Of a DNA stretch of 64,000 nt, positions 1-18,873 are shown one piece after another. The stretch is from contig CAVWIL010000010.1 in the NCBI GenBank assembly GCA_963755045.1, positions 30,059-94,058 of the forward strand, in the 5' to 3' direction. Numbering within the stretch: the first letter of the stretch is position 1; each line of letters opens with the position of its first letter. The notes below the pieces were generated by a model. The model was not told the origin of the DNA. It saw only the letters and a program-made list of their open reading frames with translations, and did not search any database. The position numbers and the translations under genes are program-made. Origin of the DNA: Nitrospirota bacterium. GTDB lineage: Bacteria > Nitrospirota > UBA9217.

Positions 1-756
1 GAACCATCGTCGGGGCTCGTGCTGGCCAACGCGCACCTTGTCAAGCCCTGCTTTCCTGACCGGGATGACCCGCGGCTGACCCGGCTTCGGACTCCCGCAA
101 TATCTATGACCAGCTTATTCTCCGGGAACCATAAAGGCTTTCGGACCATGGCGCCATCGCCCGTAATGACGACTCCGACGCCTTCCTTTCCAGCAGATGC
201 CCGAACCGCGGTAACAACCGTTGCGGTTCCTTTTGCCCGGCCGGGTCGGCGGGTACCGGCGCCGGTGGAGGGGTTCCTGGCAGCGGCGCGGGCGTTACCG
301 CTTCAGGAGCCGTCTTTACCTCCTCAACGGGCTTGGCTGAGTTCGACGATGAGCTTGCCGCCGGACTGATACACCTTTGATTCTACGGCCTGGGATAGTC
401 CGATTTCAAGCCGCGCGATAATTGTCCTTCTGGCTGGGGATGATGTCGAGCAACAGCCCCGCTGTTCACCGTTATCTTGTCCTGGGAATTTGCCGATACC
501 GGCGTCGGAAATATCCACAACCAGCCGGAGCGGCTCCGTTAGCTGGAACGATGTATACTGCAGGATAGGCTCCGATGCCTCGATGGTGATTTCCGTTTTC
601 CCGTCCACTTCGCGGGGCTCTATCTTATTGAGGAGGACCTGCGTTCCTGGTTGATCTAGCCGTTGCCGGCGCCTTGGCCGCGCACCCATGAAGCGCTGAT
701 ACGAAAGAGATGAGGATAATCAACCAACATACCTTCAGCGGTTGAGTGAACTTCAT
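1..756 (-). CDS. pilQ: Type IV pilus secretin PilQ, N-terminal AMIN domains (partial, runs off window; frameshifted)
   Basis: RBS GGAGGG then ATG at 756 (MKFTQPLKVCWLIILISFVSALHGC, lipoprotein-like signal). AMIN-like segments PLRLVVDISDA (ORF 324..689) and KLVIDIAGV near 140-100. Sits directly after pilP. The secretin domain is outside the window. Confidence 0.8.
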
Positions 757-1283
757 GGCGTTCCCTCCTGTTTTTTCCGGAGCTCGATCACAATCTCTTA
801 CACTAGGATTACCCGAAAGCGGTTTGAATTTTTCTTCAACGGATCATTGTGCTCTGTGGTTATCTTCTTTACAACACCCTTGCCTCGGCCCGATAATGGG
901 TCCCGACTCGGACAAGATAGCCTTGCCCGTCAGGGCCTTCTACCAGCGCATTATAGCCGAACCCTTGCCATAAGATGCCCATAAGCTTGAACTCATACAG
1001 ATTATACCGCTCCAGCGGCGGGCGATCTCCCTCGTTTTCGCGTGTTAATCTCTTCCTTCACGATAATCGGCGCGAAGGGGTCCCGTCTTTCGAGAAGGAT
1101 TATAGGAATACGCAGTCGCTGGTTTTTTTCCTCAATCGCCGTCGGAGTTCGCCTGGCTGATCGGTTTCTGGCCCGGCTTTGCGGCAATCGGTGTGGGCGC
1201 TGTCGACGGCCCTGCCCGAATCGGAGCAGCCAAAAAGAGAATACGGCTGTGCCGAGCAACAGTGTATCGGCCAGGACCAGCAT
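753..1283 (-). CDS. pilP: Type IV pilus assembly protein PilP (frameshifted)
   Basis: RRDPFAPII motif in ORF 1002..1283. Manual translation of the C-terminus gives AYNALVEGPDGQGYLVRVGT...EIVIELRKKQEG. Stop overlaps the pilQ start (ATGA). Confidence 0.8.
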
Positions 1284-1906
1284 TACCTTATTGTGATTTT
1301 TTTCCCTGTTTGCGGTGCTTCAACTTTTTTCTCCACTGCCGAGAAGGTCATTGCCGTGCAATTGATTATCAGCTTCTACGTTCCCGTTTTTTTCCATATT
1401 TTTTGCTCCGCTCATTTTTATGTTGAGAATATTTACAATACGGGTCAACTTCCCTACGTGGTCGAATAAGGAAGCCGTATACTGATATCCGCCGATCAAA
1501 GACAAGGATATGGGAATTTCCTCGTACAGCCCGCTCTCGTGGGTCCTCCGCTTATCGGGTTTCCAGAACTTGAGGACGAGGCCCGACTGATTCACCAGAT
1601 TTTGTATCTGCCTCAAGAGACCGCAGACTTCGGATTCGGGCGGAAGCTGTTCGGTAAGCACGACAAGCAGCGCCTGTTTTGCCTTGACTTCGGCTTTCAG
1701 TTCGCATCGAGAGTTCCTGATCTTGGTGTCGTTCTCCTTATTTTGGCTTCAGTTCGGAAAGCAATTTTTGAGTTGATCCATCTGGGTGTTCATGGGAATC
1801 GCGAATTGAAAGACATAGCCGATCAACAGTACGAACAATAAAGGCGCCAAAACGATCAGCCTAGTCTTAGGGGGAACCTTTTGTATTTTATCAATAATGG
1901 CGCCAT
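1283..1906 (-). CDS. pilO: Type IV pilus assembly protein PilO (frameshifted)
   Basis: N-terminal TM segment (RLIVLAPLLFVLLIGYVF) and PilO core QLPPESEV..LL..I...YEEIPISLSLIGGY...LTRIVNI. TAATG overlaps with pilN and pilP. Confidence 0.88.
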
Positions 1907-2454
1907 TATAATCCCTTATAAACAAACTGGAGCTTATACTTGTAAATATCCAGTCCCTCACGTTTCGTCTGGCTGGTTTCCAGCAGCGAAACATCTGCAG
2001 CAGAAGCGCGATGCCTTGAGGTTGTCGACGAACCGCACGACATCCTCATTTGTAAATGCCTCGCCCTCTATGCTTGATATTATTGCTGCTTTCCGTCAGC
2101 GATGAAATAACGACCCCCATAGGGAGCGCCTTACTAATCTCATCAAGCAGCCGGACGGGTCCCGCCTGGTTTTTTTTAAGCTTCTCGATAATTTCAATCT
2201 TCTCAGCGACTTTTTTTCGCTCTTCCTCGACATTCTTGACTTCCTTAAGGACGTTGTCCTGCTCGCGAATCTGCTTTTCGCGGTCGCCTTTTCCCTTCAA
2301 GAGCGATCAATGATTTGTTTTGCCTGTTCCAGTAAGAACCACATAGCGATCCCGACAAGGATGAGGACCAGCAAGGCGAGCAAAAGCTGCTGCTGAAGAT
2401 CGATGACCTTCTTGGGCGGCTTTTCTTGGTAGGCAGAAGATTTATTCCAATCAT
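1906..2454 (-). CDS. pilN: Type IV pilus assembly protein PilN (frameshifted)
   Basis: Starts MIGINLLP, then a TM helix, a coiled coil and KKNQAGPVRLLDEISKALP. Lies between pilM and pilO. Confidence 0.9.
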
Positions 2455-3502
2455 CGATCTCCCGGCCTCCTGATCGCAAGCCCCACGGCAACCGCGCACA
2501 AAGGGGCCGATTCCGCCATCAGCGCGGGGTCAAACCGCTTCTGGTCGACTTTAATGTTCTTAAACGGATTGACTCACCTCGACCGGAATCTCAAGCCGTT
2601 CGGACAGACCGTCGTAAAATTCCCGATCCGGGCGCATCCTCCGGAAACCAGGACCCGGCGACACTTTTCACTTCCCGTCGTGGAACGGAAAAACTCGAAT
2701 GACCGCTGCGTTTCCGACACGATATCATCGGTCACGGAAGACATAACCCCTGAAATCGTTCCTTGTCCGCCCCTTCGACATCCTCGCCCCGTTTCACTTT
2801 TTCCGCATCTTCAAAGGTAAGACCGAAATCCCTCTGGAGCGCCTCGGTATACCGGTTGCCGCCGACAGTGATGTCGCGGGTGAAGATCGACATTCCGTCC
2901 TTCAGGATATTGATATTCATCACCGATGCGCCGATATTCAAAAGCGCCGTTGTGCCGGTCTCGATGTCATAATTGAGTTCATGCATGTTCGCCAGCGCAA
3001 AGGCATCGACATCCATGACGACCGGTTCCAGTCCCGCCTCTTTCACGAGATTGACATAATCGTTGATCTTGTCCTTTTTACGGCAACCAGCAATACGTCG
3101 GCCTGGCCTTCCGTCGGCTCCCGGCCCAGCTTCTGGAAGTCGACGTTCACGTCGTCGATGGAGAAGGGAATATACTGCTCGGCCTCCCACTTGATGGATT
3201 CCGCAAGCTCCTCATCGGTCATATCTGCTACGGAAACGCGCTTGATGATGACCGAACTTCCGGAGACCGAGATCACGACCTCTTTCGTCGTCACCTTCTG
3301 CGCCGCAAGCAGCTCCCTGATGGCCTCCACGACCCGTCCGGCATCCATGACCGCGCCTTCCACGATGACTTCAGGCGGCAGCGGAACCATGCCGAATTTC
3401 ACCAGCTGATATTTTTTATTCGAGCCCTTCAGCTGAACAAGTTTGATAAAGGTGGACCCGATGTCCAGTGCGATCGGGCTCTATTTTTTTGGAAAAAAGC
3501 AT
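2451..3502 (-). CDS. pilM: Type IV pilus assembly protein PilM (frameshifted)
   Basis: IALDIGST.IKLVQL, IKWEAEQYIPFSIDDVNVDF, EPVVMDVDAFALAN, LLNIGASVMNINI and AVGLAIR, all typical of the actin-like PilM. Confidence 0.95.
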
Positions 3503-3531
3503 TATCGCTCCGGAAGCAGATGTGCGCCGTA

Positions 3532-3732
3532 TCACGCGGCATTCTTGCTTTTTATGATCCTTTCGATTTTCCTTCAGGTTGCTCTCGCTGTAGACTCTCC
3601 AGCCGCGCCAGTCCCGTTCGACGCCGGTCAACAATCCATCGCTCTCCCACCGGAACAGTGTGGCCCGAGAAATATCGAAGCGATTGCATATCTCGTTCGT
3701 TTTATATTTTTTGAGCTTTTGCGCGTGACCAT
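3532..3732 (-). CDS. Small MerR-type helix-turn-helix DNA-binding protein, about 66 aa (frameshifted)
   Basis: Manual merge of frames gives MVTRK...YKTNEICNRFDISRATLFRWESDGLLTGVERDWRGWRVYSESNL. RBS GAGAGGG precedes the ATG at 3732. First gene of the pil operon. Confidence 0.75.
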
Positions 3733-3784
3733 GGTACCCTCTCTGGATAGTTTACTGATATTACTTATAGTAAGTATACTTATG

Positions 3785-3813
3785 ATGATACTGAAAAAAA
3801 TATCGATTGTCAA
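3785..3813 (-). promoter_or_regulatory. Sigma70-type promoter for the HTH-pilMNOPQ operon
   Basis: Minus strand reads TTGACA (3813-3808), a 17-nt spacer, then TATCAT (3790-3785). Confidence 0.7.
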
Positions 3814-3909
3814 GTTTTTTTATATTTTTTTTACAAAGAAATACATGCACACGAGATATTGTATGGCGGCGGAAACACTACAAGATATTGAATCCTGGCT
3901 GCGTCATGG

Positions 3910-4524
3910 TTAGTGCTATATACGAACAAAATCTGAATATAATGGCTGGCGCTGCCGGCAAGCACGAATAAATGCCAGATTCCATGACTGTAGAAATCCT
4001 CTTATCCAGCGCATAAAAAACAACCCCGATCGTGTAGGACAGCCCTCCCGCCACGATCCAGATCAGTCCCGCGGCGGAAGGGCATTCACAAGCGGGCCCT
4101 CGCGACAATCGACAAGCCAGCCCATCAGCAGGTAAATAACGACCGACAGAATGCTCCTGCGTCTCCAGCCAGGAGGTCCTGAAGAATGCCGACGAGAGCC
4201 AGACCCCAGACTGCGCCGAACAGCCACCATCCCCAGGCACCGCGCAGGGTAACGAGGGTAAGGGTGTATAGCGTGCCCGCTATGAGCAGGTAAATGCAGC
4301 ATGGTCCAATGACTGGAACACCGTCTTGATCTTCCCCCGGTGCTGTGATAAAGCGCGGAAAACAAATACAACGCCACAAGCGTACCGCCGTAAATACTGA
4401 AGCTGACGATTTTCCAGGGATCACCGGTCAGGGCGGCGTGAACGACCAGAAAGACAAGTCCCGCTACCGCAAGGCACGTCCCGATCAAATGAGAGATGCT
4501 GTTTATCCGTTCGGCCTGATACAT
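3910..4524 (-). CDS. Hemolysin III / PAQR-family membrane protein (frameshifted)
   Basis: ERINSISHLIG, SALYHS, IYLLIAGT, GGLSYTIG and HGIWHLFVLAG motifs across the frames. Confidence 0.9.
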
Positions 4525-4570
4525 ACGCTTTCCGATATCGATTATGACATCATGGCTTGATCCCGGAAAT

Positions 4571-4604
4571 AAAAAAAAGGAGAGGCCTCAAAGGCCTCTC
4601 CTTT
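4571..4604 (-). terminator. Rho-independent terminator after cooS
   Basis: Hairpin AAAGGAGAGGCCT-CAA-AGGCCTCTCCTTT followed by a U-tract on the minus strand. Confidence 0.8.
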
Positions 4605-4624
4605 GGATAGTGCTGTATTCTTCC

Positions 4625-6604
4625 TTAGATATCTTCTCCATGCGGTGTCGCGAAGAAGCACCGCGCCGCGCAGCCATATCCATGAGCACGCGCTCGGTGC
4701 CGAAGGCGCCCGGCTCGTACTTGCGGATCTTGAGCTTCTCCCGGCGGTGTCGATGAGCTTCAGTGCCAGTTCGAGGATTTCCCGGGTCTTCCTCAAATAG
4801 AATCCGGCTCTACCGTATCCCACCACTTGTTTTCCATCAGGTCCTTGATCGCTTGCTGGCGCTGACCGGTGAACCCGCGCCAAGATGATCGGCACACCCG
4901 ATGCGACAAAGTAGGTGCCGATCGCGATGGCCTTTTCGCTCATCCACTCCGGCCCGATGCCCGAGCGCCGGGAGGCCGCCGATGTCGTCGCCAAGCCCGC
5001 CTTCTTCCGCGATAGGGGACGCGATGGTCAGAATACGCGAATTGTCGACGCAGGAGCCGAGGTGGAGCACCGGAGGGATGCCGATGGCCTCGCATACCTC
5101 GCGAAGACCCTGGCCCGCATTTTCCACGCCATTTTCCGGGGTCATGTAACCTGCCTTGGCCGAGGCATGGGCGGAGCAGCCGGTCTGGACCACCAGCACG
5201 TCGTTCTTTATCAGTTCGCGCGTAAGGAAATTATGCAGGCCGTCCTGGCATGATCCGGGGGATTGTTGTATCCCGCCAGGCCGACCACCCCCCGGACACG
5301 CCCCGCGATGATCGCGTCGTTCAACGGCCGGAACGAACCCCCGTATAGTCTGCCCTGCATATATTCGATATATTCGTGGGAGAACCCGGCGACCATGTCC
5401 GCCGGCCTTATCTTTGCGTGTGCAACATCTTCCTTCTTCCTGTTCGTGAAATTATCGATCGCGATCCGCACGACTTTTTTGGCTAAGGTCCAGGGCATGG
5501 TGCTCATTGTATTCAATATGAATGGCATCCTTCATCTTACCCTTGTTGGTGGTCGTGATGACCTTCGTGTGGTATTTTTTTGCAAAGTTTCGCCGATCGC
5601 GGGCATGATGCACTGCACGTCCACCACCATCGCCTCAACCATACCGGTCAGTATCTCCCAGCTCCTGCTGCAGGAATCCGCCTGCCGTGTCGATGCCATG
5701 CCGGACAAGGATTTGTTCGCGGTGCAGCACATGCCCACGAGGTTCACGCCCTTGGCTCCCTTGGTTTGTGCGTATGCCGTGATCTCCGGGTCTTCCACCG
5801 CGACAACCATCATTTCAGCGAACGACGGTTCGTGTCCGTGGACCACCAGGTTCACGTGGTCTTCCTTGAACACGTCGAGACTGGCCCGGGCCTTGACCGG
5901 CCGGGGAGTGCCGAAGAGGATGTCCGAGATGTCCGTCCCCATCATGGAGCCGCCCCACCCGTCAGCGAGCGACGCGCGCATGGCGCCGAGCATGATATTA
6001 TTCGCTTCCTGATCAACGCCCATGGTCGTCCGGTGCATCATCTCGACGACTTCACGGTCGATTGCGCGAGGCGCTAGCCTAGCTTTTTGGACATTTCTTG
6101 CCGTTTCTTGGGCGCCCGTGACAAGAAAGCGTAGTTCTCCCCGCTGTTGTCCGAACTGTTCGAGAAATTTCAGCGCCACCTTCTCGGCAACTTCGTTCAC
6201 CGGCTTCCCTTCAACGTCGATGCCGAGGTATCCTGCAACCCGGTTCAGCTTGCGGACGTCCTTGATCTTGAAATCCTTGGCTTCTCCCTCGCGCTACGGC
6301 GAGAAGGGTGTTCGCAAGGTCACGGGCATGGTCGGAATGAGCTGCGGTTCCGGCGGCAACCATGCGGGCGAAGTTTCTCGCCGCCACAACCGGCAGCGAG
6401 GCCCCGCAAACGCCCACGGCCTCTTCTTCTTTTCCCGTCAGCGACACCGACCCATGTGGCACATTTTACAGCACGCGCCCGAGTGACCGATAGGGCATGG
6501 TTTCATCTTCTCCGCGCGATCGAACGCGGTCTCGATACCTTGTCAGACCGGCTACCTTCAGATGCCTGGGCAGCCGGATCAACCGATTTCTAATTTTCTT
6601 TCAT
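4625..6604 (-). CDS. cooS: Anaerobic Ni-containing carbon monoxide dehydrogenase catalytic subunit (frameshifted)
   Basis: D/B-cluster CPIGHSGACCKMCHMG.C, HSDH, HGHEP, GMCCTAN, DVQCIMP, QTGCSA, HLGSCVDNSR and EWMSEKA motifs. Confidence 0.95.
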
Positions 6605-6763
6605 GAGTATGGAAACTCCTTTCGCAATGAGGCGAAAATGCCCTCGATTTTAGCAGGGGGCGTTATACAAAATTAAAAAAAAATACTACTAAAAGTTACT
6701 AGAGTTGATCGTAGCTTAAATCGGACGAAACAAATATTCTAGGCTGTGATTTTAGCGAGAATG

Positions 6764-8916
6764 TTATTTCTGCTTTCGCAATGCAGGCGTTCTAACAACC
6801 ATAACCTTGATCTCTGCCGAACCGGACATCATTCCTTGGTTCATGGCCATGAGAAGTTGTTGAGTGAAACTCCATAGGGTTTGCAGCCGGGCTTTGAGGT
6901 TTGAACGCACGGAACTTATTTTCCCGGACTTGGCTTTCTTTACCAGCGCGGCAACGTCTTTGGCCGTGAAGCTTTGGTCTTGCTCATTGCAGCGGACATT
7001 TCCGCGGGATAACCCGCCGTCCTTGGTCTCCCCGCAGGCGGGCTGCGCCTGGGCAACGGTTTAAGCTGTGCCGTAGGTATTGATGATCGTTCCCTGCTTT
7101 TCATACAGGGAGGTCATGGGAACACGACGTCGGCTTTTTCGGTAAGGGCGTCGCATGGCTGGCCTGGACAATGATGAAATCGGCCTTAAAATCCGGGTCC
7201 GGAATACTCCCGGCGATCAAAAGCGCCCTCATGCCGGACTTCATTTCGCGGTAGCTCTTTCCCGCTTTCTTCACTTGGCAAACCGGGTCCACTGTCGGAC
7301 AGGCAGCCCATCTGGATACGCCAAGGGTGTTCGCCTCGAGCATGAGTGGCAGAACGCCAGCACTTTTCAGGAGGCCAGATTCAAGGCCTGAAGCGAGGCA
7401 TCCTCATTTGCCGAGATGCCGGTCCCGATAACGACCACCGGCTGCTTTGCCACTGCAAACGCCTTTGCCGCTTCAGTGATCGGTTCCGCCGACACTCCGA
7501 GATCGAAGCGGCCTGTCGATGCTGACGAGCGACTTCTTTCAGCGCGTCAAACCCTTTCTGCCGGGGACGTCAGCGCCTTCGGCGATCGCGCGCTACATGA
7601 TGCCCCGCGAGAAGGACCGTGTCGGTCCCTTCTTGAGCTGGGAGATGAATGGCATTCTGGTGGGAGGCGAGTTCGATCTTGTCCGGGTTCACGACGATGA
7701 TCTTTGCGCCTGCCTGCGCCCTTCTCCGGATCATCACCTCGACCTCCTGGAGGGCCTGGCTTTTCTGAGACGGGTCGCGCCGATCACCACAACACGTCCG
7801 CGGACCTGAGATCGGCCTGGGACGCGATGGCGATGCCTGCATCGCCATAAACCGCACGAAGGGCCGAGATCAGTCCGCCTGCATAACGGATGCCGGCGTG
7901 TCGATATTCGCGCTTCCCGTGACTTCACGGGCGAGCTCCTGAACCGCATACGCCTCTTCATTGGTAAGCGAACCCGCGGCGATGAAACCGGCATCGGCTC
8001 CCGCCTTCTTGAGAGCGTCGGCCGCGATCTTGGCTGCGTCTTTCCAGGTCGTGGGTACCAGCTTGCCGCCCTGTTTCTTCATCGGCGTGGTGATCCGGTT
8101 CGCGGCTTTCATCGAGTCGAAGCCGAAACGGCCGATGGCGCAGATGTAGCCGTTGTCTTCTTTCGCGTTCACCTTGACGATCTTGCCGTTCTTGCTGCTC
8201 GTGGTCACGCTGCAGCCGGAGCCGCAGGCGGTGCAGACCGTGTCATGCTTCTCGAGGTCCCACTCCCGGCCGTGCTGCCAGCGGTCCCGCTCCATGATGG
8301 TGTTCACCGGGCAGGCGTCCACGCAGGAACCGCAGAAGGTGCAGCCCGACTCGTGGAGCGGCTTGTCCAGGGCCGTCGAAACCTTGGTGGTGATGCCGCG
8401 GCCCATGAAGTCGAGCACGTTCGTTCCCTGTTCCTTGCAGACCCGCACGCAGCGGCCGCAGAGGATGCAGTAGTTGTTGTCGATGGTGATGAAGGGGCTC
8501 CGGTCGTTCAGCGGGTAATTGAAGCTCTTCCTGCCGAATGACGATTCCTGGATCTTCAGGTCCGCGGCATAGCGCTGGAGATCGCAGGCGCCGGCCTTGG
8601 GGCAGGTCATGCAATCCAGCGGATGGAAGGAAAGGACCAGGTCGGTCACGAACTTCCGGATCTCCTCGACCTTCGGGGTCTTGGTCTGGACCTTCATGCC
8701 CTCCTTGGTCCGGGTCGTGCATCCGGTGACCGGGGTCTTCATGCCCTCGATCTCCACCATGCACATGCGGCAGGCGCCCACGCCGCGCAGTTCCTTGATA
8801 TGGCACAGGTTCGGGATATGGACTCCCACCGTTGCCGCGGCATCGACAAGGGTCATCCCCTCGGGCACCGATACGGCCTTGCCGTCAAATTCCATGTTCA
8901 CCATCTTGGTCGTCAT
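6764..8916 (-). CDS. NuoG/HydA-like FeS subunit (BfuA-like): 2Fe-2S plus multiple 4Fe-4S clusters and a catalytically empty molybdopterin-oxidoreductase-fold domain (C-terminal half frameshifted)
   Basis: RBS GGAGG and ATG at 8916. Motifs GACRMCMVE, HPLDCMTCPKAGACDLQ, CILCGRCVRVC, CTFCGSCVDACP and CTACGSGC..C. The FdhF active-site position reads IDTPASRYAGG, with no Cys/Sec-His. No H-cluster motifs. Confidence 0.85.
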
Positions 8917-9035
8917 AACATCCTCCAAAGAATCAATTAATTAAATTCAAAATTCGAAATGGAACATTCGGGATTTTTCATCGAAACTTGAGCTTATCAT
9001 TGATCATGGTGCTAGCACTGTTCACGACGTTGTAT

Positions 9036-9701
9036 CTACTTTCCGGCAAAGCACTGTTCCGCCATGTCATGAATAGAGCAGGCCGGAAAGCCTTGCCGAG
9101 AGCATTGCAGCGGATGTCGCAGGTGCCAACCAGGGTCCGCAGGGCTGCTTGACGGCGACCTCGCGGTCCTGCTCAATGACGAAGACCGCGTTTTCGGGAC
9201 AGACCATGATGCATTCGCCGCAATGGGTGCAGCGCTGCTGCCGGATGCGGAAGGTGTGAACCCGGTCTTATAAGGCTGTTTCTGGCCCTCGATGGCGAGT
9301 CCGCGCAGACCTCGCGGCATTTGTCGCACATGGTGCACTTCGCGGCGTTGATTTCATAGCTCACGAGGCCGCTTGCATTCGTGGTAGTCGCAGACGCCCT
9401 TGATGTGGCGGTCAAGGTCTCCTGGCGCTGGTGGCGAGGAACGCGCCAGGATATCGGCGTGGTCCTTCCCCTTCTTGCACATGCCGCCGTCTTTCACGTC
9501 CACGGCAATCCGTTTGAGGAGGGCGACGTGTTTTTTCCCTTACCTGTCTGGATAGCCTCGAGGATCTTGATAGCGTCGAAGATGCCGAGCTTGCGGGATG
9601 GCACTTGGAGCACATGCCATTCTTGGAATCGTCATTGTAGAAGAAGTCGGGTTTCGGCCCGCGTGGCTGATTAACCGGGCAGTTACTTTCCTGTGCGACA
9701 T
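9036..9701 (-). CDS. Stand-alone NuoF-C-terminal-like polyferredoxin subunit (frameshifted; end approximate)
   Basis: RBS GAGGAGG. Merged translation gives CPV...GMCSKCHP[C]KLG...GGMCKKG...[12 protein letters not shown]...[11 protein letters not shown]...[12 protein letters not shown]. Confidence 0.75.
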
Positions 9702-11583
9702 GGATCCCTCCTCTTCTCGATCTCGATGGCCTGCGTGGGACAGACGGTGTAACAGGCCTTGCACTTGGTGCAGTAGTCCTGGTCGATAAAGAATTTGTCC
9801 CGCATTTCCACGACGGCGTCGAAGGCGCAGGCCTCTCTTGCACATACCGCAGAGAATGCAATGCTCCGGCAGGATGCGGACGTACCCAGCCCTGGCAGCG
9901 CTTGGCCCGGCAGTACTTGTCGTTCACATGTTCTTCGTATTCCTCGCGGAAATACTTGATGGTCGAGAGCACCGGGCTCGGGGCGCTGTTACCGAGGCCG
10001 CAGAGCGATCCGGCAACGACCATCTTGCCCATCTTCTCGAGCAGCTCGATGTCGCCTTTTTCTCCCTGGCCGGACGTAATCTTGTCAAGGAGCTCGTACA
10101 TCTGCCAGGTGCCGATGCGGCAGGGCGGGCATTTGCCGCAGGACTCGCTCTTGGTAAAGGAGAGGAAGCACTTGGCCACATCCACCATGCAGTCGTCCTC
10201 GTCCAGGACAACCATGCCGCCGGAGCCCATGATGGAACCCACCGTCGCTAGGGTGTCGAAGTCTACCTGCATGTCGAGGAACTGGGCCGGGATGCAGCCG
10301 CCCGAGGGGCCGCCGGTCTGGACGGCCTTGAACCTCTTGCTCCGGGTTCAGCATGCCACCGCCGATATCGAAGATGATCTCCCGGAGCGTGATGCCCATG
10401 GGAACTTCGATAAGGCCCGTGTTCTTGATCTTGCCAGTCAGGGCGAACACTTTCGTGCCTTTGGATTTCGCGGTGCCGATGGAGGTATAGTAATCAAGCC
10501 CCTTGGTGATGATCTGGGGACATTAGCAAAGGTCTCTACGTTGTTCCAGGTTCGTCGGCATGTTCCACAGACCGCCCGCCGCTTCGGAGAGTCGCGGAGG
10601 ACGGGGCCGCGGCATGCCGCGCTCGCCCTCAAGGGAGGCAACCAGGCCGTGGATTCGCCGCACACGAACGCGCCCGCGCCTTCCTTGATCTCGAGGTCGA
10701 ATTCGAGTTCGCTGCCCAGGATGTTCTTTCCCAGGAGACCCATTGCTCGCGCCTGGTTGATGGCAATGCCGAGGTTTTTCACGGCCAGAGGATATTCATG
10801 CCGTACATAAATATAGCCGTACTGGGCGCCGATGGCGTAGGCGTTGATCAGCATGCCTTCGATGACGGAATGGGGATCTCCCTCCATGAGCAGCGCGGTC
10901 CATGAACGCGCCCGGGTCGCCTTCGTCGCCGTTGCAGACGACTGCCTTGATCTTAGCATCCCGATTTCTTCGTGTGCTCCACTTGAGGCCTGCAGGGAAA
11001 CCAGCGCCGCCGCGGCCGCGAAGGCCGGACTTTTTAACAATATCGATGACCTCGTCGGGTTTCATCTCGGTCAGCACTTTCGCAGGACCGCATATCCGTC
11101 CTCGCGGATGGCGTCGTTGATATTGCAGGGATCAATAAAACCATTCCGATGGAGCGCAACACGTTTCTGCTTCTTGTAAAAAGGGATGTCCTGCACTTGC
11201 TACGTTCGGTCGGACAAGCGGGAATTCGCGGTAGAGCTTCTTGCGGTAGGGTACGCCATGCAGCACGGAATCGGAGAAGAGAGTCGGGATATCATCCACT
11301 TTCACCTTCTGGTAAAAGATCTCCTGCGGGTCCTGGATCACGACCGGACCGCGCTGGCAGAAGCCCTGGCATCCGGTCTTCACGATCTCAAGCTCGACCT
11401 GTTTCTGCCGACGCTTCTTTCTCGAATTGTTCGATCAGTTGTTAACGACCCGTGGCCTGACAGCGGTACCGCAACAGACGCGCACCCGGTGGGCGTCGCT
11501 TTCCTCGTGCTCCTTTTTCAGCTTCAGTGCGAAGGCCTCGAGGTCTGGTGACATTGTTCTAGCCGCTTAAACGTGAGTTCCAT
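9683..11583 (-). CDS. NuoF/HydB-like FMN/NAD-binding subunit (BfuB-like) (frameshifted)
   Basis: N-terminal thioredoxin-like 2Fe-2S (CCGTAC, TGCQGFC), [55 protein letters not shown] and a C-terminal 2x[4Fe-4S]. Confidence 0.93.
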
Positions 11584-11585
11584 GT

Positions 11586-12058
11586 TCACTCCTCGCCATG
11601 TAATGATTATATCGTCCACCATCTTTGGCGTGAGTTCGCCGAACAGGTCCTTGTCGTTGATCGTGGTAACGGGCGCCAATGCGCAGCACCCCACGCACCC
11701 GACGGTCTCAAGGGTAACGGAAAGGTCCTTGGTCGTTTCACCTTCCTTAATACCGAGCTGTGTCTCCATCTCCGTGAGCACAGCCTTCGCGCCTCGCACG
11801 TGGCAGGCAGTACCCATGCAGACCTTGACGATGTTCTTGCCGCGGGGCTTGAAATGGAAATGTTTGTAGAACGAAGCAACGCCGTAAACATTGTTCAGCG
11901 ACAGGGACATGCGCTCGGCGATCATGGTCATTGCCTCTTCAGGCAGGTAACCGATCTTTTCCTGGACCCGCTGGAGCACGGCGATGAGCATGCCCCGCTG
12001 ACCCTGCGGAATCATCGAGGACCGAATCAACCTTCTTTAGGTCTTCTTGCTGGAGCAC
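11586..12058 (-). CDS. NuoE/HydC-like 2Fe-2S subunit (BfuC-like)
   Basis: LIAVLQRVQEKIGYLP, GVASFY, VCMGTACHVRG and ETVGCVGCCALAP. GTG start at 12058 after GGGAGG. Confidence 0.93.
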
Positions 12059-12507
12059 GATAAGGACCTCCCTGCTGAAAGTGCGGCCAAACAATCCGTA
12101 AATAAGATTCGCAGATTGATTTTCCAAGGTGATTTTAGCATGATATTAAGAACAAGTAAGATTGCAACATTCAGTAACCTATGCAGCTTGGAAGACAAAT
12201 TTATTATTTGATGTTAATAAAAGTTATACATATTAGCAACCACTGATAAAAAATCAAGGGAAAATATTAGAAAAAAAATCATGCGCAACTTATTAATATC
12301 TATTAATAAAAGTGAAGTCAGGTTACCGAACTTCACTGAAGCGGATCTGGTTCAAATACGTTGAAGAACAGGGACGCTTTTCGGCTCGATCGGGGGAGCA
12401 CGTCAAAGCTCGCAGTCATGAGGAGTCTTTGGGATCGGTTTGACAGGCACCGTGAACTGCTTTCATATTAATACTTCACAACCCGAAATGCGAGAGAAAT
12501 CCTGCAT

Positions 12508-13825
12508 ATGAATTCTGGCAATGATCCTTGCCGGCGGCAAGGGAGAACGGCTCCATCCCCTCACCATCCATCGAGCAAAGCCCGCGGTCCCCTTTGGCGG
12601 AATCTACCGGATCATCGACTTCTCCCTGTCGAACTGCATCAATTCCGGAATTCGCAAGATCGCCGTGCTGCCCCAATACAAGTCCCTGTCCTTGGACAAA
12701 CACCTGCGGCTCGCCTGGAACCTCTTTTCCGGTGAATTGGACGAATACATCATTTCCGTACCACCCCAGCAGCGGGTAGGAGACAAGTGGTACCAGGGTA
12801 CGGCCGATGCCATCTACCAGAACATCTATATGATCGAGAAAGATGCGCCGGACCATGTGCTCGTGCTTGCCGGAGACCACATCTACAAAATGGACTACGC
12901 CGAGATGTTTCGGTTTCATCAAGAGCACAAGGCGGATGCCACCGTGGCTGCTATCGAGATCCCGAAAAAGAGCGCAGCGGCCTTTGGCATTATAGAGGTG
13001 GATGATCGTGCTGCATCCTCGATTTCGAGGAAAAACCCAAGAAACCAAAAGCATACCCGGCCGTCCGGAACTGGCCTTCGCTTCAATGGGCATTTATCTG
13101 TTCAACACCAAGACGTTGCTGGAGCATCTGAAGTCCGACGCTCTCCAGGAAACCTCCCACGATTTCGGCAAGAACATCATCCCCCAGATGATGAAGACCT
13201 CAAGGGTCTGCGCCTACAATTTCCGGGATGAGAACAAGAAAGAGGCAAAGTATTGGCGCGACGTCGGTACCATCGATGCCTACTGGGAAGCGAACATGGA
13301 CCTTGTAAGCGTTGATCCGTTCTCAACCTCTACGATAAGGCCTGGCCCATCCGCACCTACCAGTGGCAGAATCCTCCGGCCAAGTTCGTGTTCGCACAGG
13401 AGACAAAAGGCGGCAGGCTCGGCATCGCACTTGACTCGATCGTGGCACATGGCTGCATTGTGAGCGGCGGCCGGGTGCAGAATTCCGTGCTGTCGCCCAA
13501 TGTCCGGGTGAACAGTTACAGCGAAGTGCACGATTCAATACTCATGGAGAACGTGGATATCGGCAGGCACAGTCGTATTCGCCGAGCTATCATCGACAAG
13601 GACGTCGTGATCCCGCCGGAGACCGAGATCGGGTATAATCTTGAGAAAGACAAGCAGCGCTATCACGTAACACCATCGGGCATCATAGTGATCGCGAAAG
13701 GGACGGAAATTTCGGAGAAAATAAGAGCGTCTGGTATTACGGAAGAGAGGACTAAATCACACCGACGATTCAAGGATCGTCATTCCTTCGAAGGCAGGCA
13801 TTCGGAATTTTCAAAAAGCCCCTGA
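12508..13825 (+). CDS. glgC: Glucose-1-phosphate adenylyltransferase (frameshifted; true stop may be near 13724)
   Basis: [59 protein letters not shown] and [12 protein letters not shown]. Confidence 0.95.
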
Positions 13826-13845
13826 TCCCGGATCACGTCCGGCAT
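13779..13845. repeat. Degenerate REP-like palindrome between convergent genes
   Basis: GTCATTCC..CGAAGGCAGGCATTC...GATCCCGGATCACGTCCGGCAT resembles the widespread GTCATTCCCGCG/GTCATGCCGGAC REP type. Confidence 0.45.
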
Positions 13846-13873
13846 ATTAAACAAAGGCATTTCAAGCCAATCT

Positions 13874-14509
13874 CTATTTATCATCCCACTTCGTCGACAT
13901 GAAAACATTTCGCAGTTTGAGCCACCGATGCTCCCGATCCGTCAACAGCTCCGGTCCGAAGATTTTCTTCATTTTAATGAGTGACAAGCGGTCAGCAATC
14001 CCGAAGAGCCCGGTGAAGAATCGGCCGATCAGAGGAATGCGTCCCGCATGGAGTGCCGAGGCCAGGTCCACGATGAATATCTTGCCGTCAACAAACAGAA
14101 TATTTGTCCGTCGGTGCAGATCGAGATGCACCCAGCCGCGCTTATGCAGCTCATCAACGATCCGTTCGAATTGTCGTATGACCTCAGGCCCGAACTCGCC
14201 CCGCTGAAAACAACCAAGATCCTTACCCTCAAGATACTCGATGGCAAGGGAATAGGGCGAGAGCCGCTTGAACTTCGGCGGCAGCCCCTCGACCCCGCTC
14301 AACGCCTCGTATGCCCTGGCCTCCCTTCCGATCACGATGAGACCGACTAAATTCCTTTCCCAGAAGCCTTTTTGCGAATAGTCTTTCACCACGAAGCGGT
14401 GCTCACCGAACCGCGTGATGAAAACATCCGCCTTGGTGAACCGGCCCTTGATCATGACCTTCTCGAGATTCATGATCGCGTTGTCGTATGTCAGAGTGGG
14501 ATGCATCAT
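13874..14509 (-). CDS. RIO1/Kdo-kinase-like small protein-kinase-fold protein
   Basis: VVKDY, REARAYEAL, GWVHLDLHRRTNIL (catalytic loop) and IVDLASA (DFG-like). Has its own TTGACT-17-TAAAAT promoter at 14571-14543. Confidence 0.75.
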   Translation of the reverse strand: MMHPTLTYDNAIMNLEKVMIKGRFTKADVFITRFGEHRFVVKDYSQKGFWERNLVGLIVIGREARAYEALSGVEGLPPKFKRLSPYSLAIEYLEGKDLGCFQRGEFGPEVIRQFERIVDELHKRGWVHLDLHRRTNILFVDGKIFIVDLASALHAGRIPLIGRFFTGLFGIADRLSLIKMKKIFGPELLTDREHRWLKLRNVFMSTKWDDK

Positions 14510-14595
14510 TTGAGGGTTGTTTGCTTCGTGACAAGTCTCATCATTTTAAAAGCACCCCGGGAAAGAGTCAAGGCATTTATAGCCAAGGTAAAGAA

Positions 14596-14627
14596 AAAGC
14601 CTCCTGTCCAGCCTGACAGGAGGCTTT
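14596..14627 (-). terminator. Rho-independent terminator after the pepA operon
   Basis: Perfect 13-bp stem AAAGCCTCCTGTC / GACAGGAGGCTTT with a U-rich tail on the minus strand. Confidence 0.8.
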
Positions 14628-14635
14628 GCGTCAAT

Positions 14636-14856
14636 GCTTTTTTAAACACCCGGCCGGTTTGCACCACACTCGACCCTGCACATACGGGAACGCCGCTTGC
14701 GTTGCGCAGTTTCAAGACATCGCTCCCCTCTTTTGCCTCGGCTGCAATGACGATGTATTCTTCCCGGTGGAATGCCTTCGATCCGAAGTAATAAATACGG
14801 CTGAAGATTCCGGAACAGCTTCTCAACTTACTGCCGTCCCGACTTTTCAGCTTCAT
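14636..14856 (-). pseudogene. Short hypothetical ORF or remnant of a small OB-fold-type exported protein
   Basis: ATG overlaps the pepA stop. IVIAAEAKEGSDVLKLRNASGVPV resembles, from memory, the C-terminus of a hypothetical family. The terminator at 14596-14627 argues it ends before the ORF-track stop at 14506. Confidence 0.35.
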
Positions 14857-16347
14857 TTCTCCGCGTAATCTCTCAGGAACTGCGTCAGGAGCCGAACGCC
14901 GATACCCGTCGCACCTTTGGGCGTGTAGGGCCGTTCCGTTTCGGTCCAGGCCGTCGTGGCAATGTCAAGGTGTACCCAGGGATATTTCTGCACGAACTTC
15001 GAGAGAAGCGCTGCAGCCGTAATGACGCCGCCCCTCCTTCCGCCGGTGTTTTTCATGTCCGCGATGTCGCTCTTGATCTGCTCGTAATACTCTTCCCACA
15101 GCGGCATCTCCCACACACGTTCGCCGGCCTTTTCACCTGCAATGCGTATCATCTGCTTGAATCGGTCATTAGTGCCGAGCATGGCCGTGGCCTCGGTGCC
15201 AAGAGCGATACCGCACGCACCGGTAAGCGTAGCGATGTCCACGATAACCGCGGGTTTGTAGGTGCAGGCATAGGTGAGCGCATCGGAAAGGATGAGCCTG
15301 CCCTCCGCGTCGGTACTCAATATCTCAATGGTCTGACCGGACATGGTGCGGAGCACATCGCCTGGTTTGTACGCGCTGCCGCTTGGCATGTTCTCCGTTA
15401 CCGGCAGGAGAGCGACGATATTGAGCGGTAACTTGAGCGCTGCAGCGGTCCGGATCGCTCCGAGCACCGCTGCGCCTCCGGACATGTCGTCCTTCATCCT
15501 GTCCATGTTCTCGGAGGGCTTGATCGAGATGCCGCCTGAATCGAAGGTGATCGTTTTACCGACAAGTGCTACGAATGGCTTCTTCCCGCCCTTCCGGTAC
15601 TCAACGATGAGGAACTTCGGCGGCTGCACGCTTCCCGCGGCAACGCCGAGCAGGCCGCCCATGCCGAGCTTTCGCATCCTGTCCTTTTCAAGGACCCGGA
15701 GCTTGAGTCCGAACTGTCGCGCGATCTCTTTCGCCTTGGCAGCGATGATCGGCGGCGTTTTGTCGGCAGGCGGCGAACTCACCAGGTCACGCGCCATGAC
15801 GGTGGACGCGGCAATCGCCTCACCCGCCTTCACACCTTTTTGTATGGCCTTGATCCCGCCGATGGATTCCTTCAGACAGAGTGATCGTCCGCACGTCTCT
15901 CGCAAGGCCGTTTTCCTCTCCGGTTTTATACTTCAAGAAACGGTAGAGTCCGAGTATGGTCCCTTCTGCCAGCGCCTGCCCAAGCTCTTCGGCATCAAGA
16001 ACGACCCCGTCAGTAATAAAGGTGATGTCCCGCGCCCCGGCGCTTCTCAGCGAACTTGCCGCCTTGCCCGCGGCCTGCCGCAAGCGATTAGGTGTGAACT
16101 CACTCCGATTACCCAGTCCCACGAGGAGCAGCCGTTCAGCACGGATCCGGCCCTCGGGGTAGAGAAGATGAACCGTGCCCGTTTTGAGCTTTACATCGCC
16201 CTTCTTAATAAGGCGTGAGATCATTCCACCGAGCGCCTTATCCACCCGTTCTGCAACCCTGCCCGGTTTCTCTTTTTCGAAAAGCAGGATGATTGCTGCA
16301 TCCGTCTTATGCTTCTCTATTTTCCCGGCACGAACATTGATCTTCAT
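14853..16347 (-). CDS. pepA: Leucyl aminopeptidase (M17), one frameshift near 15870
   Basis: LVGKTITFDSGGISIKP, MKDDMSGGAAV, TDAEGRLILSDAL, DIATLTGAC and HLDIA. Confidence 0.95.
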
Positions 16348-16524
16348 AGGCCCCTACCTGGTAGTACGTTTTTCTGCAAAATACGTGGTGAATGATAAGA
16401 CAGGGATGCTGTAATGATAAACATAATAATGCAATTCCCGCTGTAAACCGTGTTTAATTAATCCTTTTTCGAGTCTCTCCGCGTCACCGGTAAGCGTCCG
16501 AAATTTTACAGGTGTCAAACGGTC

Positions 16525-17255
16525 TTAATCTTTTCTCACCACGATCGGCTCCAAACCTTCGAGCATCAGTTTGCCCGCCACGTGCTCGGCACGATCCTCG
16601 GACGCATAGGCGCCCACCCACACGCGATAGAACCTGGCACTATTCGTTTCAAAGGGAACGATCGAGACCGTCTCGAATTTGGTATCCAGTCGCTCCTTCA
16701 ACGCCCGCGCGTTCTCTTCCTCGGCGAAGACGGCCGCCTGAACCGTGTATTGCACCGGGCCGCGCACCGCATCAAGGGTCTCGATCCTTACCCGTGCAGT
16801 CCCCTGGGCCACAAAACCCAGCGCTTTGGCTGCTCCATAGGACAGGTCGAGAAACCTGCTCTTAAAGAACGGTCCCCGGTCGTTTATTTTTACCTGTATG
16901 GTCTTGAAATTATCGAGGTTGGTAACGTGGATGACCGTGCCGAGCGGCAGGGTCCGGTGCGCTGCCGAGAGCCCATACATATCGAAGACTTCGCCGCTTG
17001 CCGTCTTTTTCCCGTGGAGATCCTTACCGTACCATGCAGCCATCCCGGTCTCACGGTATATCTCTTTCGGTTTACGTTACGGGATACAGGTACCGAAACC
17101 GGGACTGCAGCTGGAGCTGCAACAGGAGCCGGCGCAGTGGAGGCAGGTGCGGCCAACGGCACCTCCCTGCCGGCGCAGGCATAGATCAATGCAAACGCCG
17201 GTAGGAGTCCGGTAACGAACAGTCGAATACACGCTAAAGGAGAACAGAACCGCAT
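16525..17255 (-). CDS. rlpA: Septal ring lytic transglycosylase RlpA (DPBB plus SPOR domains), one frameshift
   Basis: AAWYG...HGKKTASGE.FDM...SAAHRTLP, INDRGPF...LDLSYGAA, and a SPOR domain (YTVQAAVF...FYRVWVG). Lipoprotein-like N-terminus (LIYAC). Confidence 0.92.
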
Positions 17256-17268
17256 GCTGCGATCCGGT

Positions 17269-17484
17269 TTATGCAGAAGCGGCCGGTGTTGCTTCGCCGG
17301 CTTTCTTGCCTGTTGACTTGTATGCTTTAGCCGTGCGGAGCTTCCGCTGGGCCCTCTTTACCTTCTTGCGCGCCGTGCGCAGTTCAGGGTCGGACTTGAT
17401 TGCGGCTTTCGTTTTCTTCTCCACAGCCTTTTGTTTCAATTTTTTGATCTTCTCCTGCAACTTTTCCTGATTAACCTTGATCAC
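17269..17484 (-). CDS. Small Lys/Ala-rich basic protein, 71 aa
   Basis: GTG start after AAGGAGG, with its own TTGATT-17-TATTAT promoter (17564-17536). Composition is strongly basic and helical. Confidence 0.75.
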   Translation of the reverse strand: MIKVNQEKLQEKIKKLKQKAVEKKTKAAIKSDPELRTARKKVKRAQRKLRTAKAYKSTGKKAGEATPAASA

Positions 17485-17654
17485 GTATGCTCCTCCTTAA
17501 AAAATTGGATACTCCTGAACCGAGATAGAGCACTAATAATAGACAAAAGTCCTCACGAAATCAAGCTATTTTGTCGATATTGTTTTGTCCGTTTTCTACG
17601 GATGGATATCTTCGGGAAAAGATGAAGGGCTGGACTGCGCCGTGCCTAAACAAT

Positions 17655-17690
17655 AAAAAAGGGAGTCGCCCTTTTTCAAGGTGACTCCCT
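17655..17690 (-). terminator. Rho-independent terminator
   Basis: GGGAGTCGCC / GGTGACTCCC stem with a U-tract on the minus strand, downstream of the 95-aa gene. Confidence 0.7.
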
Positions 17691-17706
17691 GTGGTTGGTT
17701 CTTCGG

Positions 17707-17994
17707 TTAACAACCCACTGCTGCTTTTGGCTTTGCCGACGCCTTCACGCTCGTTAGCGTGTCCTTGTCGACGGTGATCATTACCTTGTCGCCAGCCTTC
17801 ACTTTGCTGAGGTCGACGGCCTTGTCGGCCTTCAGGGTCACATCGGCGGTGGTGCCTTCAGCACAGAATACGGCCGTGCCTGCCTTTGCGTCCACACTTT
17901 TGATTGTGCCCTTCATCGGCTCTGCTGCAAACGCCAGTGAAAACAGAGAAACAACCAGAATTGCTGCTGCGAGAATTGCTGCTGCTTTTTTCAT
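17707..17994 (-). CDS. Small exported beta-barrel (OB-fold-like) protein ending in -GC, 95 aa
   Basis: Signal peptide MKKAAAILAAAILVVSLFSLAFA, RBS GGAGGGG, own TTGAAT-17-TAATAT promoter (18068-18040) and a terminator. C-terminus is KAAVGC-TAA. Confidence 0.8.
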   Translation of the reverse strand: MKKAAAILAAAILVVSLFSLAFAAEPMKGTIKSVDAKAGTAVFCAEGTTADVTLKADKAVDLSKVKAGDKVMITVDKDTLTSVKASAKPKAAVGC

Positions 17995-18339
17995 TCGTTC
18001 TACCCCTCCTTTAGTGGATTATAAAAAAACGTGATGGGTATATTACCACAAGTTTAAGAATTATTCAATTGAAATTTTAAATGATCTTATTTGATAATTG
18101 TGTGATTATAAGGCCGAATTCTAATGCGCATAACGATTCTCTTGTATTTCCATACCATTTCCCAGAAAAAAAATTATACTCTGCGGCAATGTGGAGTCAT
18201 CTATTCAACGGCCTGCTGGTCGCAAACGGGAATGCACTCCGGGCTTCTGGCGGGAACAAAATAAACGACAATGTCACCGAGAAGGTTTTCGGCATACCAG
18301 GAGGCGAAATAATGTCTCCACACGTATGTTGCCATGGAC

Positions 18340-18873
18340 CTAATCCCCCTCAAACTCGGTAAGGGCGAAAATGCTATATCCCTTTTCCAAGAGTTTCTTT
18401 TTCCCGCCGACATCAGGCAGGTCAACGATGAACGCTATCTCGACGACTTTTGCGCCGAGCTTTTCGATGAGTGCGGCGGCGGCCAGTGCCGTGCCACCCG
18501 TAGCGAGGAGGTCGTCTACCAGAAGCACCCGCTCGCCTTTTTTGAGCGCATCCTTGTGGATCTCGATCTTGTCCGTGCCGTACTCGAGATCATATTCCTG
18601 AGAAACGACCTCAGCCGGAAGCTTGCCCTTCTTGCGGATTGGAATAAAACCTTTCCCGAGTGTATACGCCAGTGCCGCGCCGATAATGAAACCCCGTGAC
18701 TCGATGCCTACAATAGTATCGAATTTAAAATTCACATGCATATACCGCTGGGTCAGGGTATCGATGACGAGCCGGAAACCCACGGGGTCCTTGAGCAGCG
18801 TGGTGATGTCTCGGAACATGATCCCTTTCTTGGGATAATCAGGGATGGTTCTGATCTGTGACTTGATTGACAT
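18340..18873 (-). CDS. apt: Adenine phosphoribosyltransferase
   Basis: IPDYPKKGIMFRDITTLL, GIESRGF, YDLEYG and VDDLLATGGT. Confidence 0.97.
   Translation of the reverse strand: MSIKSQIRTIPDYPKKGIMFRDITTLLKDPVGFRLVIDTLTQRYMHVNFKFDTIVGIESRGFIIGAALAYTLGKGFIPIRKKGKLPAEVVSQEYDLEYGTDKIEIHKDALKKGERVLLVDDLLATGGTALAAAALIEKLGAKVVEIAFIVDLPDVGGKKKLLEKGYSIFALTEFEGD

Follow-up and report, generated by a model that had tools for sequence, protein, structure and literature searches.

A putative Bfu-type carbon monoxide dehydrogenase module, probably tied to the acetyl-CoA pathway, in uncultured Nitrospirota

The 64,000-nt stretch of DNA analysed here (the window; Nitrospirota bacterium, GenBank assembly GCA_963755045.1, contig CAVWIL010000010.1, positions 30,059 to 94,058) contains five minus-strand genes in the order nuoE(bfuC)-nuoF(bfuB)-small FeS gene-nuoG-like(bfuA)-cooS (about 4625-12090; Table 1), where FeS stands for iron-sulfur and cooS encodes the catalytic subunit of a carbon monoxide dehydrogenase (CODH). 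This five-gene module is most likely a new form of the predicted, never-purified Codh-Bfu, and the CODH-Bfu pairing is probably the electron gateway of the acetyl-CoA pathway in this group of uncultured sulfate-reducing Nitrospirota. An earlier reading of the same DNA (the original prediction) had placed nuoE-, nuoF- and nuoG-like genes directly upstream of cooS on one strand, which is correct for the minus strand, and had omitted the fifth gene, which encodes a FeS protein of about 230 aa; taken as a whole, that observation is real, needs correction and is partly confirmed, while its interpretation is partly supported. In the window, none of nuoF, nuoG-like and cooS is an intact open reading frame (ORF). 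As the window copy is damaged, the functional statements below rest on its intact twin on contig C23 (locus L018) of the metagenome-assembled genome (MAG) G000, against which the gene coordinates of the window were mapped, and on orthologues.

The predicted cluster ligands of all five proteins are invariant or nearly so, as counted across 41 orthologues of NuoE, 40 of NuoF, 46 of the small FeS protein, 48 of the NuoG-like protein and 44 of CooS. The NuoE-like protein contains the invariant residues Cys91, Cys96, Cys132 and Cys136. The NuoF-like protein (632 aa) comprises an N-terminal [2Fe-2S] domain, a core for flavin mononucleotide (FMN) and nicotinamide adenine dinucleotide (NAD(H)), a [4Fe-4S] cluster, a Cys3His Zn-hinge set and a C-terminal 2x[4Fe-4S] domain. 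PF01257 matches are found in both the NuoE-like and the NuoF-like protein, corresponding to the separate [2Fe-2S] of the C subunit and the N-terminal [2Fe-2S] of the B subunit, both with invariant ligands. The NuoF core is matched by PF01512 and PF10589 and contains the invariant Cys481, Cys484, Cys487 and Cys527, while the B3/B4 domain, with Fer4 at residues 570-626, aligns with AmHydB and AwHydB and keeps its eight cysteines in 39-40 of the 40 orthologues. Cys464 (in DCMVD), His551, Cys557 and Cys562 align with the same two proteins and are kept to the same extent; this Cys3His hinge set is modelled as [2Fe-2S] in AmHydB.

Among solved structures, the eight that match the NuoF-like protein best over its full length are all B subunits of Bfu-type complexes (640-735 bits), including NiFe-HydB (7t2r_B, 735 bits), the HydB proteins of A. 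woodii, T. kivui and T. maritima, NfnB, 9mqx_B and 8oh5_B, the last two of which we take to be the Wor and Stn B subunits, respectively. The beta subunits of non-bifurcating formate dehydrogenases and the NuoF of complex I reach about 400 bits or less and are without the terminal domains. The B3/B4 domain is present in all characterised bifurcating HydB proteins and absent from the non-bifurcating ones, and the Zn site is made up of three cysteines and one histidine (Furlan 2022). The earlier statement that the NuoF-like subunit carries the hallmarks of bifurcating HydB/BfuB is thus borne out, as all sequence hallmarks are present, the match to bifurcating B subunits is full-length and the ligands are conserved; the motifs quoted for it (GDPGAFM, GFKAVQ, DCMVD / EH..C....C and the C-terminal 2x[4Fe-4S]) are found in the window or in its indel-masked translation.

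With 231 aa, the small FeS protein matches residues 461-630 of NuoF (E 2e-18) and is a free-standing copy of the whole C-terminal arm of BfuB, with a CxxCxxC...C [4Fe-4S] motif, a Cys/His/Cys/Cys Zn-like site and 2x[4Fe-4S], where 16 cysteines and one histidine are invariant. Its gene is found in every locus compared, and the subunit may serve to wire CooS to BfuA or as a second arm at which ferredoxin docks. The NuoG-like protein (720 aa) contains [2Fe-2S], His-ligated [4Fe-4S], 2x[4Fe-4S] and MopB-type [4Fe-4S] cluster sites together with a MopB-like domain, the cluster ligands being kept in 47-48 of the 48 orthologues, and HydA of NiFe-HydABCSL (7t2r_A), which is catalytically empty, matches it along the whole length. 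The Pfam search gave no PF01568 match and no Fe-hydrogenase large-subunit (H-cluster) domain for this protein, and [FeFe] HydA chains align over residues 5-220 only. Tyr-Ala stands at the aligned place of the Mo-ligating Cys386-His387 of R. capsulatus FdsA, so the claim that the NuoG-like subunit has neither an H-cluster nor a Mo ligand is upheld. Identification of this subunit as a formate dehydrogenase, a hydrogenase or the N-module of complex I was rejected on the same features and on the lack of membrane nuo genes nearby.

The twin CooS scores 592 bits on TIGR01702 (cut-off 478), its B-, C- and D-cluster ligands are invariant, and its best solved relatives are the CODH of the C. autoethanogenum CODH/acetyl-CoA synthase (ACS) complex (6ytt_B, 606 bits) and D. 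vulgaris CooS. Judged by these sequence features it is a bona fide, canonical Ni-CODH, apparently clade-E-like and from the AcsA lineage of Nitrospirota. A hybrid cluster protein (HCP) in place of a CODH was rejected, as the TIGR01702 score is well above the cut-off and HCP models score weakly; a separate HCP-like gene lies on contig C7 of G000.

Wherever the contig allows, 48 species-level Nitrospirota genomes share the order nuoE-nuoF-FeS-nuoG-cooS without exception. A separate set of 16 loci, taken from whole genomes of the window's family and overlapping in some contigs with the 48, has the same five-gene order. The proposed synteny check across related genomes thus finds cooS strictly linked to the module in relatives. 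Homologues of the small FeS protein are present in about 110 of 301 sampled Nitrospirota genomes. No relative outside Nitrospirota was found among the best 120 protein matches (all Nitrospirota, at least 70% identity), and a scan of genome contigs gave close relatives only. Four other families (G030, G174, G047 and G119) contain the module in one operon, cooC-acsE-acsD-acsC-acsB-cooS-nuoE-nuoF-FeS-nuoG-like, whose products share 62-65% (CooS), 62-66% (NuoF) and 40-46% (NuoG-like) identity with the C23 proteins; Thermodesulfovibrionales and Dissulfurispira are among the names borne by close relatives of the G030 protein.

In the CooS tree, the Nitrospirota CooS proteins form one ACS-linked clade (100/99), from which two stand-alone paralogues are excluded, and the window's family has a monophyletic main group (97/100); the variant found in loci L070 and L061 groups with acsB-linked CooS. 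The acs cluster of G000, on contig C5, comprises a cooC-like gene, acsE, acsD, acsC and acsB; there is no cooS in this cluster nor beside its acsB, and no other Ni-CODH was found in G000, where the sole other Prismane-family gene is HCP-like. Since acsB-adjacent orthologues exist, CooS belongs to the ACS-linked clade and the acs cluster of G000 is without a cooS, the Bfu-linked CooS is most likely the AcsA equivalent of the window's family, relocated behind the module and out of the acs operon. The same clade, the same gap in the G000 cluster and the four families with the module behind acsB-cooS speak against the earlier view of a stand-alone CO oxidiser. The suggested link to Dsr is speculation, as about 40 kb separate the dsr genes from the operon and there is nothing to connect the two.

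It is reasonably likely that the five products form a soluble CODH-Bfu complex which, in the window's family, is the CODH of the Wood-Ljungdahl carbonyl branch coupled to NAD(H) and ferredoxin; complex formation, the substrates and bifurcation are here proposed from the observed gene content, cofactor ligands, synteny and phylogeny. Homodimeric CooS would oxidise CO, and its electrons would pass through the small FeS subunit and/or the cluster chain of the catalytically empty BfuA to the HydBC/BfuBC-type flavin core, where the FMN/[4Fe-4S]/[2Fe-2S] site of BfuBC would divide them between NAD+ and ferredoxin, the latter docking at the B3/B4-type arm. The reaction would be 2 CO + 2 H2O + NAD+ + 2 Fd(ox) <-> 2 CO2 + NADH + 2 Fd(red) + 3 H+ (Fd, ferredoxin), with the reverse direction possible. 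In the forward direction, the complex would oxidise CO released by acetyl-CoA cleavage, and a sulfate reducer would gain NADH and reduced ferredoxin from the carbonyl group; in reverse, CO for ACS would be made from NADH and reduced ferredoxin, with half the low-potential electrons spared. By our own estimate, CO/CO2 ratios of 1e-5 to 1e-6 would bring E'(CO2/CO) from -520 mV to about -350 to -400 mV, which is the range of H2. Very low CO would thus place the couple in the range that Bfu enzymes handle, where coupling to both carriers makes sense, and coupling has been argued to pay when CO is very dilute (Schut et al., PMC9304861).

A more far-reaching proposal, which we regard as tentative, covers both the window's family and the Thermodesulfovibrionales-type relatives with the different gene order. 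Their only CODH may be part of a five-subunit Bfu-type complex splitting CO electrons, and the carbonyl branch may not be purely ferredoxin-dependent; the duplicated BfuB arm might be a new connector or a second ferredoxin site, and either CO would be a free intermediate or a two-operon CODH-Bfu-ACS supercomplex would exist.

Several observations weigh against the coupled CODH-Bfu complex. CO at standard potentials can reduce ferredoxin and NAD+ without coupling, so bifurcation is not thermodynamically required, and the extra FeS subunit and the MopB-type BfuA depart from the published Codh-Bfu model. The window copy itself holds stops, frameshifts and a Cys-to-Tyr change in the C-cluster. Genome G007, from the same genus, contains a second cooS-like gene beside acsB, and the Bfu-linked CooS thus need not always be the ACS partner. 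Lastly, 80-200 bp separate nuoG and cooS, and this spacer contains a conserved promoter-like box of cooS's own. The extended -10-like box reads TGTATAAT in relatives and TTGTATAAC in the window, and its GTATAAT core is at least 80% conserved in 35 spacers (twin spacer, L018 11700-11794). A hairpin of 6-7 bp in the 5'-untranslated region is kept in 8/8 sequences, that of the window having another sequence at the same place, and a strong ribosome-binding site, GAAAGGAG, precedes cooS. As indicated by the conserved box, the hairpin and the ribosome-binding site, cooS is probably transcribed also on its own from an internal promoter, which weakens the operon argument; such separate transcription would suit a subunit that ACS also uses or that is required in excess.

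The second cooS-like gene of G007 belongs to locus L027 (contig C12, 1129-7685), where acsB (88% identical to that of G000) is followed by the cooS-like gene, which is divergent (52%), then by an FdhA-like gene and by fhs. This set stands where the set of NuoE, NuoF and selenocysteine-containing FdhA (Sec-FdhA) would be, and the G007 genome is fragmented; either the arrangement reflects true variation inside the genus, or the contig is a contaminant. In G000 itself, a second NuoE/NuoF (592 aa) set lies directly past acsB on contig C5 (127834-134316), followed by a NuoG-FdhA fusion and then fhs. The fusion contains an in-frame TGA in CARL-U-HSS, as in a selenocysteine formate dehydrogenase, and these NuoE/NuoF/FdhA genes may be provisionally identified as a module of Fdh-Bfu type, situated where the acs cluster serves the methyl branch. 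A further, very divergent stand-alone CooS paralogue (40-48% identity) is encoded in two genomes of this genus, in loci L087 (G002 contig C185) and L088 (G005 contig C1), where none of the compared acs or Bfu-module reference proteins is encoded alongside.

The condition of the window copy bears on how the operon is to be read. No long ORF is present on either strand from 4625 to about 12090, and the Nuo and CooS pieces occur in short ORFs of several minus-strand frames: nuoF is split over several frames, the nuoG-like gene has only its first 352 codons in one ORF, and cooS is spread over at least four frames. In comparison with the C23 twin, 77 indel events were counted (nuoE 3, nuoF 17, small FeS gene 17, nuoG-like 21, cooS 19), which are mostly of 1 bp and outside homopolymers, so a simple homopolymer-type error model fails. 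The five genes contain five in-frame stops, two in nuoF, two in the nuoG-like gene and a TAG at codon 5 of cooS (6590-6604; CAG in the twin). This last stop and the change of the C-cluster ligand Cys445 of the GCNNP motif to Tyr (about 5270) are single-base substitutions, not indels.

The damage very probably arose by assembly error, the orthologue being genuine and its consensus mixed from strains or poorly polished, because the differences from the twin are mainly at third codon positions (substitutions at positions 1/2/3: nuoF 27/19/141, nuoG 89/60/277, cooS 67/36/297). With indels masked, amino acid identity to the twin is 97% for NuoE, 93% for NuoF, 75% for the small FeS protein, 80% for the NuoG-like protein and 85% for CooS, and the masked CooS is 85-89% identical to many orthologues, a normal between-species level. 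Long ORFs (250 aa or more) account for about 0.25 of the window's first 20 kb, compared with about 0.6 genome-wide, and other patches of the same contig are also poor in ORF coverage.

Genuine decay, with the window copy a non-functional duplicate and the intact operon on C23 the functional one, is unlikely, as the substitutions are strongly biased to the third codon position and the masked CooS identity, no worse than in other species pairs, leaves little room for neutral decay. Decay would be consistent with the load of damage, namely some 77 indel events, five in-frame stops and a lost C-cluster ligand within 7.4 kb, with the position of the indels outside homopolymers, and with the growth of the damage along with divergence from C23, the damaged stretch being the one with a twin; however, the neighbouring genes of the same 20 kb (glgC, pepA, pilMNOP) are all hit likewise, other patches of the contig have poor ORF coverage too, the MAG (25 contigs) is 86% complete with 3.6% contamination, and many of the close relatives are MAGs named in the 'MFD' style, with contigs called contig_N. 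Such MAGs are presumably long-read assemblies, in which case a mixed-strain consensus would fit. The window sequence is too damaged to use, and the C23 twin or the orthologues are to be used instead. Positions 29-18340 of the window correspond to C23 1-18356, where identity falls smoothly from 99% (pepA end) to about 70% (pil end); indel density between contigs C10 and C23 climbs as identity drops, and the ORF-poor part of C10 is the part having a twin. The gradient may come from a mixed-strain consensus or a chimeric join.

The products of the module could instead form a non-bifurcating, NAD(P)+-reducing CODH, in the manner of HoxEFU for NiFe hydrogenase or FdsBG for formate dehydrogenase, where the extra FeS domains would be wires or vestiges. 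CO/CO2 (-520 mV) lies below both NAD+ and ferredoxin, which would allow NAD+ reduction without coupling, and NuoEF genes near CODH/ACS have been taken simply as NADH regeneration (Suzuki 2018). This is nevertheless improbable, as the B3/B4 domain, the Cys3His site and the N-terminal 2Fe-2S are all present and invariant and non-bifurcating relatives score about 300 bits lower. That the module serves another enzyme or is a stand-alone NADH:ferredoxin oxidoreductase, with cooS a mere neighbour under its own promoter, could draw on the promoter-like box and spacer described above and on the second NuoE/NuoF set fused to Sec-FdhA in the genome, where such a module pairs with another enzyme, but is very hard to credit, as module and cooS occur together in two gene orders (cooS-first in acs operons, cooS-last here) in at least five families, BfuA is without a catalytic site and has no other candidate partner adjacent, and the formate dehydrogenase has a NuoEF set of its own.

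Bfu enzymes are known biochemically for H2, NADPH, aldehydes and formate. The CO-dependent member is so far a bioinformatic prediction from four Firmicutes sequences, Codh-Bfu, with cooS and cooF between bfuB and bfuA (Schut et al. 2022, PMC9304861), which was later renamed as the hypothetical CodhABCSF and has never been purified (Feng et al. 2025, PMC12318220); the literature thus agrees with the original prediction that CODH-linked modules are predicted and not well characterised. The likeness to Codh-Bfu lies in the BfuABC-type core encoded with cooS and in CO as the proposed third substrate beside NAD(H) and ferredoxin. The published form is from Firmicutes and contains a WorA-like BfuA and a CooF (WorS-like polyferredoxin) subunit, whereas the module described here has a Nitrospirota host, the order C-B-X-A-S (S-C-B-X-A in acs operons), a MopB-type BfuA, a BfuB-arm-like FeS subunit in place of a CooF-like gene, and a CooS of the ACS-partner lineage. 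The BfuB of the published Codh-Bfu belongs to clade 49 with NiFe-Bfu, and the best solved relative of the present NuoF-like protein is NiFe-HydB.

NiFe-HydABCSL of Acetomicrobium mobile (7T2R/7T30; PMC8880783) is the closest solved relative, over the full length, of both the NuoF-like and the NuoG-like protein, and its HydA, without a catalytic site, bridges the separate catalytic module HydSL to the bifurcating HydBC (Feng et al. 2022, PMC8880783). It differs in that the catalytic module is a NiFe hydrogenase and not a CODH, and it has no counterpart of the small FeS subunit. The CODH/ACS of acetogens (C. autoethanogenum, 6YTT) contains the closest solved CODH, and sister Nitrospirota families encode the orthologous CooS directly past acsB, whereas cooS is here detached from the acs genes. 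To our knowledge, the characterised CODH/ACS complexes use ferredoxin and have no flavin module. The NAD+-dependent formate dehydrogenase FdsABG of R. capsulatus (6TGA) has the NuoE/NuoF/NuoG-like architecture in common and gives the highest bit score for the first 550 residues of the NuoG-like protein, but FdsA contains the Mo-ligating Cys386-His387 and a full MopB domain, and FdsB is without the C-terminal B3/B4 domain.

NuoEFG-like COGs have been mentioned generically in the Wood-Ljungdahl context of Ni-CODH genes (Inoue 2019), nuoEF is found next to CODH/ACS in the candidate phylum NPL-UPA2 (Suzuki 2018), and a survey of CODH context (eLife 2026) makes no mention of NuoE/F or bifurcation. 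No paper describing the five-gene version of Nitrospirota, the duplication of the BfuB arm or the split arrangement came up in the literature search. Compared with the Firmicutes prediction, the present module is from another phylum, has a different subunit set, is shared by dozens of species and is connected with the acetyl-CoA pathway, not with stand-alone CO oxidation. If the coupling is real, Wood-Ljungdahl electron bookkeeping changes in widespread soil and groundwater sulfate reducers, and the NADH/ferredoxin ratio per CO2/CO departs from current models. Dissulfurispira-type relatives, which are reported as cultured, are possible enzyme sources, the record names being silent on which are cultures.

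The features of the locus are listed in Table 1. The nuoE and nuoF genes overlap, as do nuoF and the small FeS gene, and the set is bracketed by one promoter-like site and one strong terminator; the twin contains promoter hexamers at the equivalent place (L018 6181-6208) and a counterpart of the terminator (L018 13797-13822). The Pfam families were confirmed on the window's own ORF fragments.

Table 1. Features of the five-gene locus, in window coordinates
Feature	Position	Strand	Basis or remark
Promoter-like site TTGCAA-16-TATCAT	12140..12167	-	About 50 nt upstream of nuoE; consensus match only
nuoE-like, BfuC/HydC-type subunit, thioredoxin-like [2Fe-2S]	11567..12090	-	PF01257, E 1e-48
nuoF-like, BfuB/HydB-type flavoprotein	9683..11583	-	Pfam, solved relatives, ligand alignment
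Small FeS gene, about 230 aa	9037..9705	-	PF10589 and Fer4 domains
nuoG-like, BfuA-type scaffold without catalytic site	6770..8916	-	Pfam, alignments
nuoG-cooS spacer with extended -10-like box, hairpin and ribosome-binding site	6605..6670	-	Comparison of relatives' spacers
cooS, Ni,Fe-CO dehydrogenase catalytic subunit	4625..6604	-	PF03063 on three fragments
Intrinsic terminator, 13-bp G+C-rich stem then T run	4576..4604	-	21 nt past the cooS stop codon

The neighbours in the window are glgC upstream and a hemolysin-III-like gene with pilMNOPQ downstream, in line with the earlier statement that no cooF, cooC, acs, fdh or hydrogenase gene is adjacent; the order on C23 is glgC, nuoE, nuoF, small FeS gene, nuoG-like, cooS, hemolysin-III-like gene and pilMNOP. 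The relatives of this uncultured organism are Nitrospirota/Nitrospirae MAGs of soil, groundwater and subsurface origin, among them UBA9217 and GWC2_57_13. A complete five-gene operon (77-89% identity) is also found in locus L071, from a record labelled Betaproteobacteria bacterium MAG281, the CooS of which nests inside the Nitrospirota clade, and this contig is probably mis-binned. One lineage of the window's family (locus L070, 3060-5393; also L029 and L061) has a further BfuB paralogue of 777 aa, encoded after nuoE and ahead of the regular nuoF; it carries a pair of CBS domains at its C-terminus and may be a nucleotide-sensing regulatory version of this subunit.

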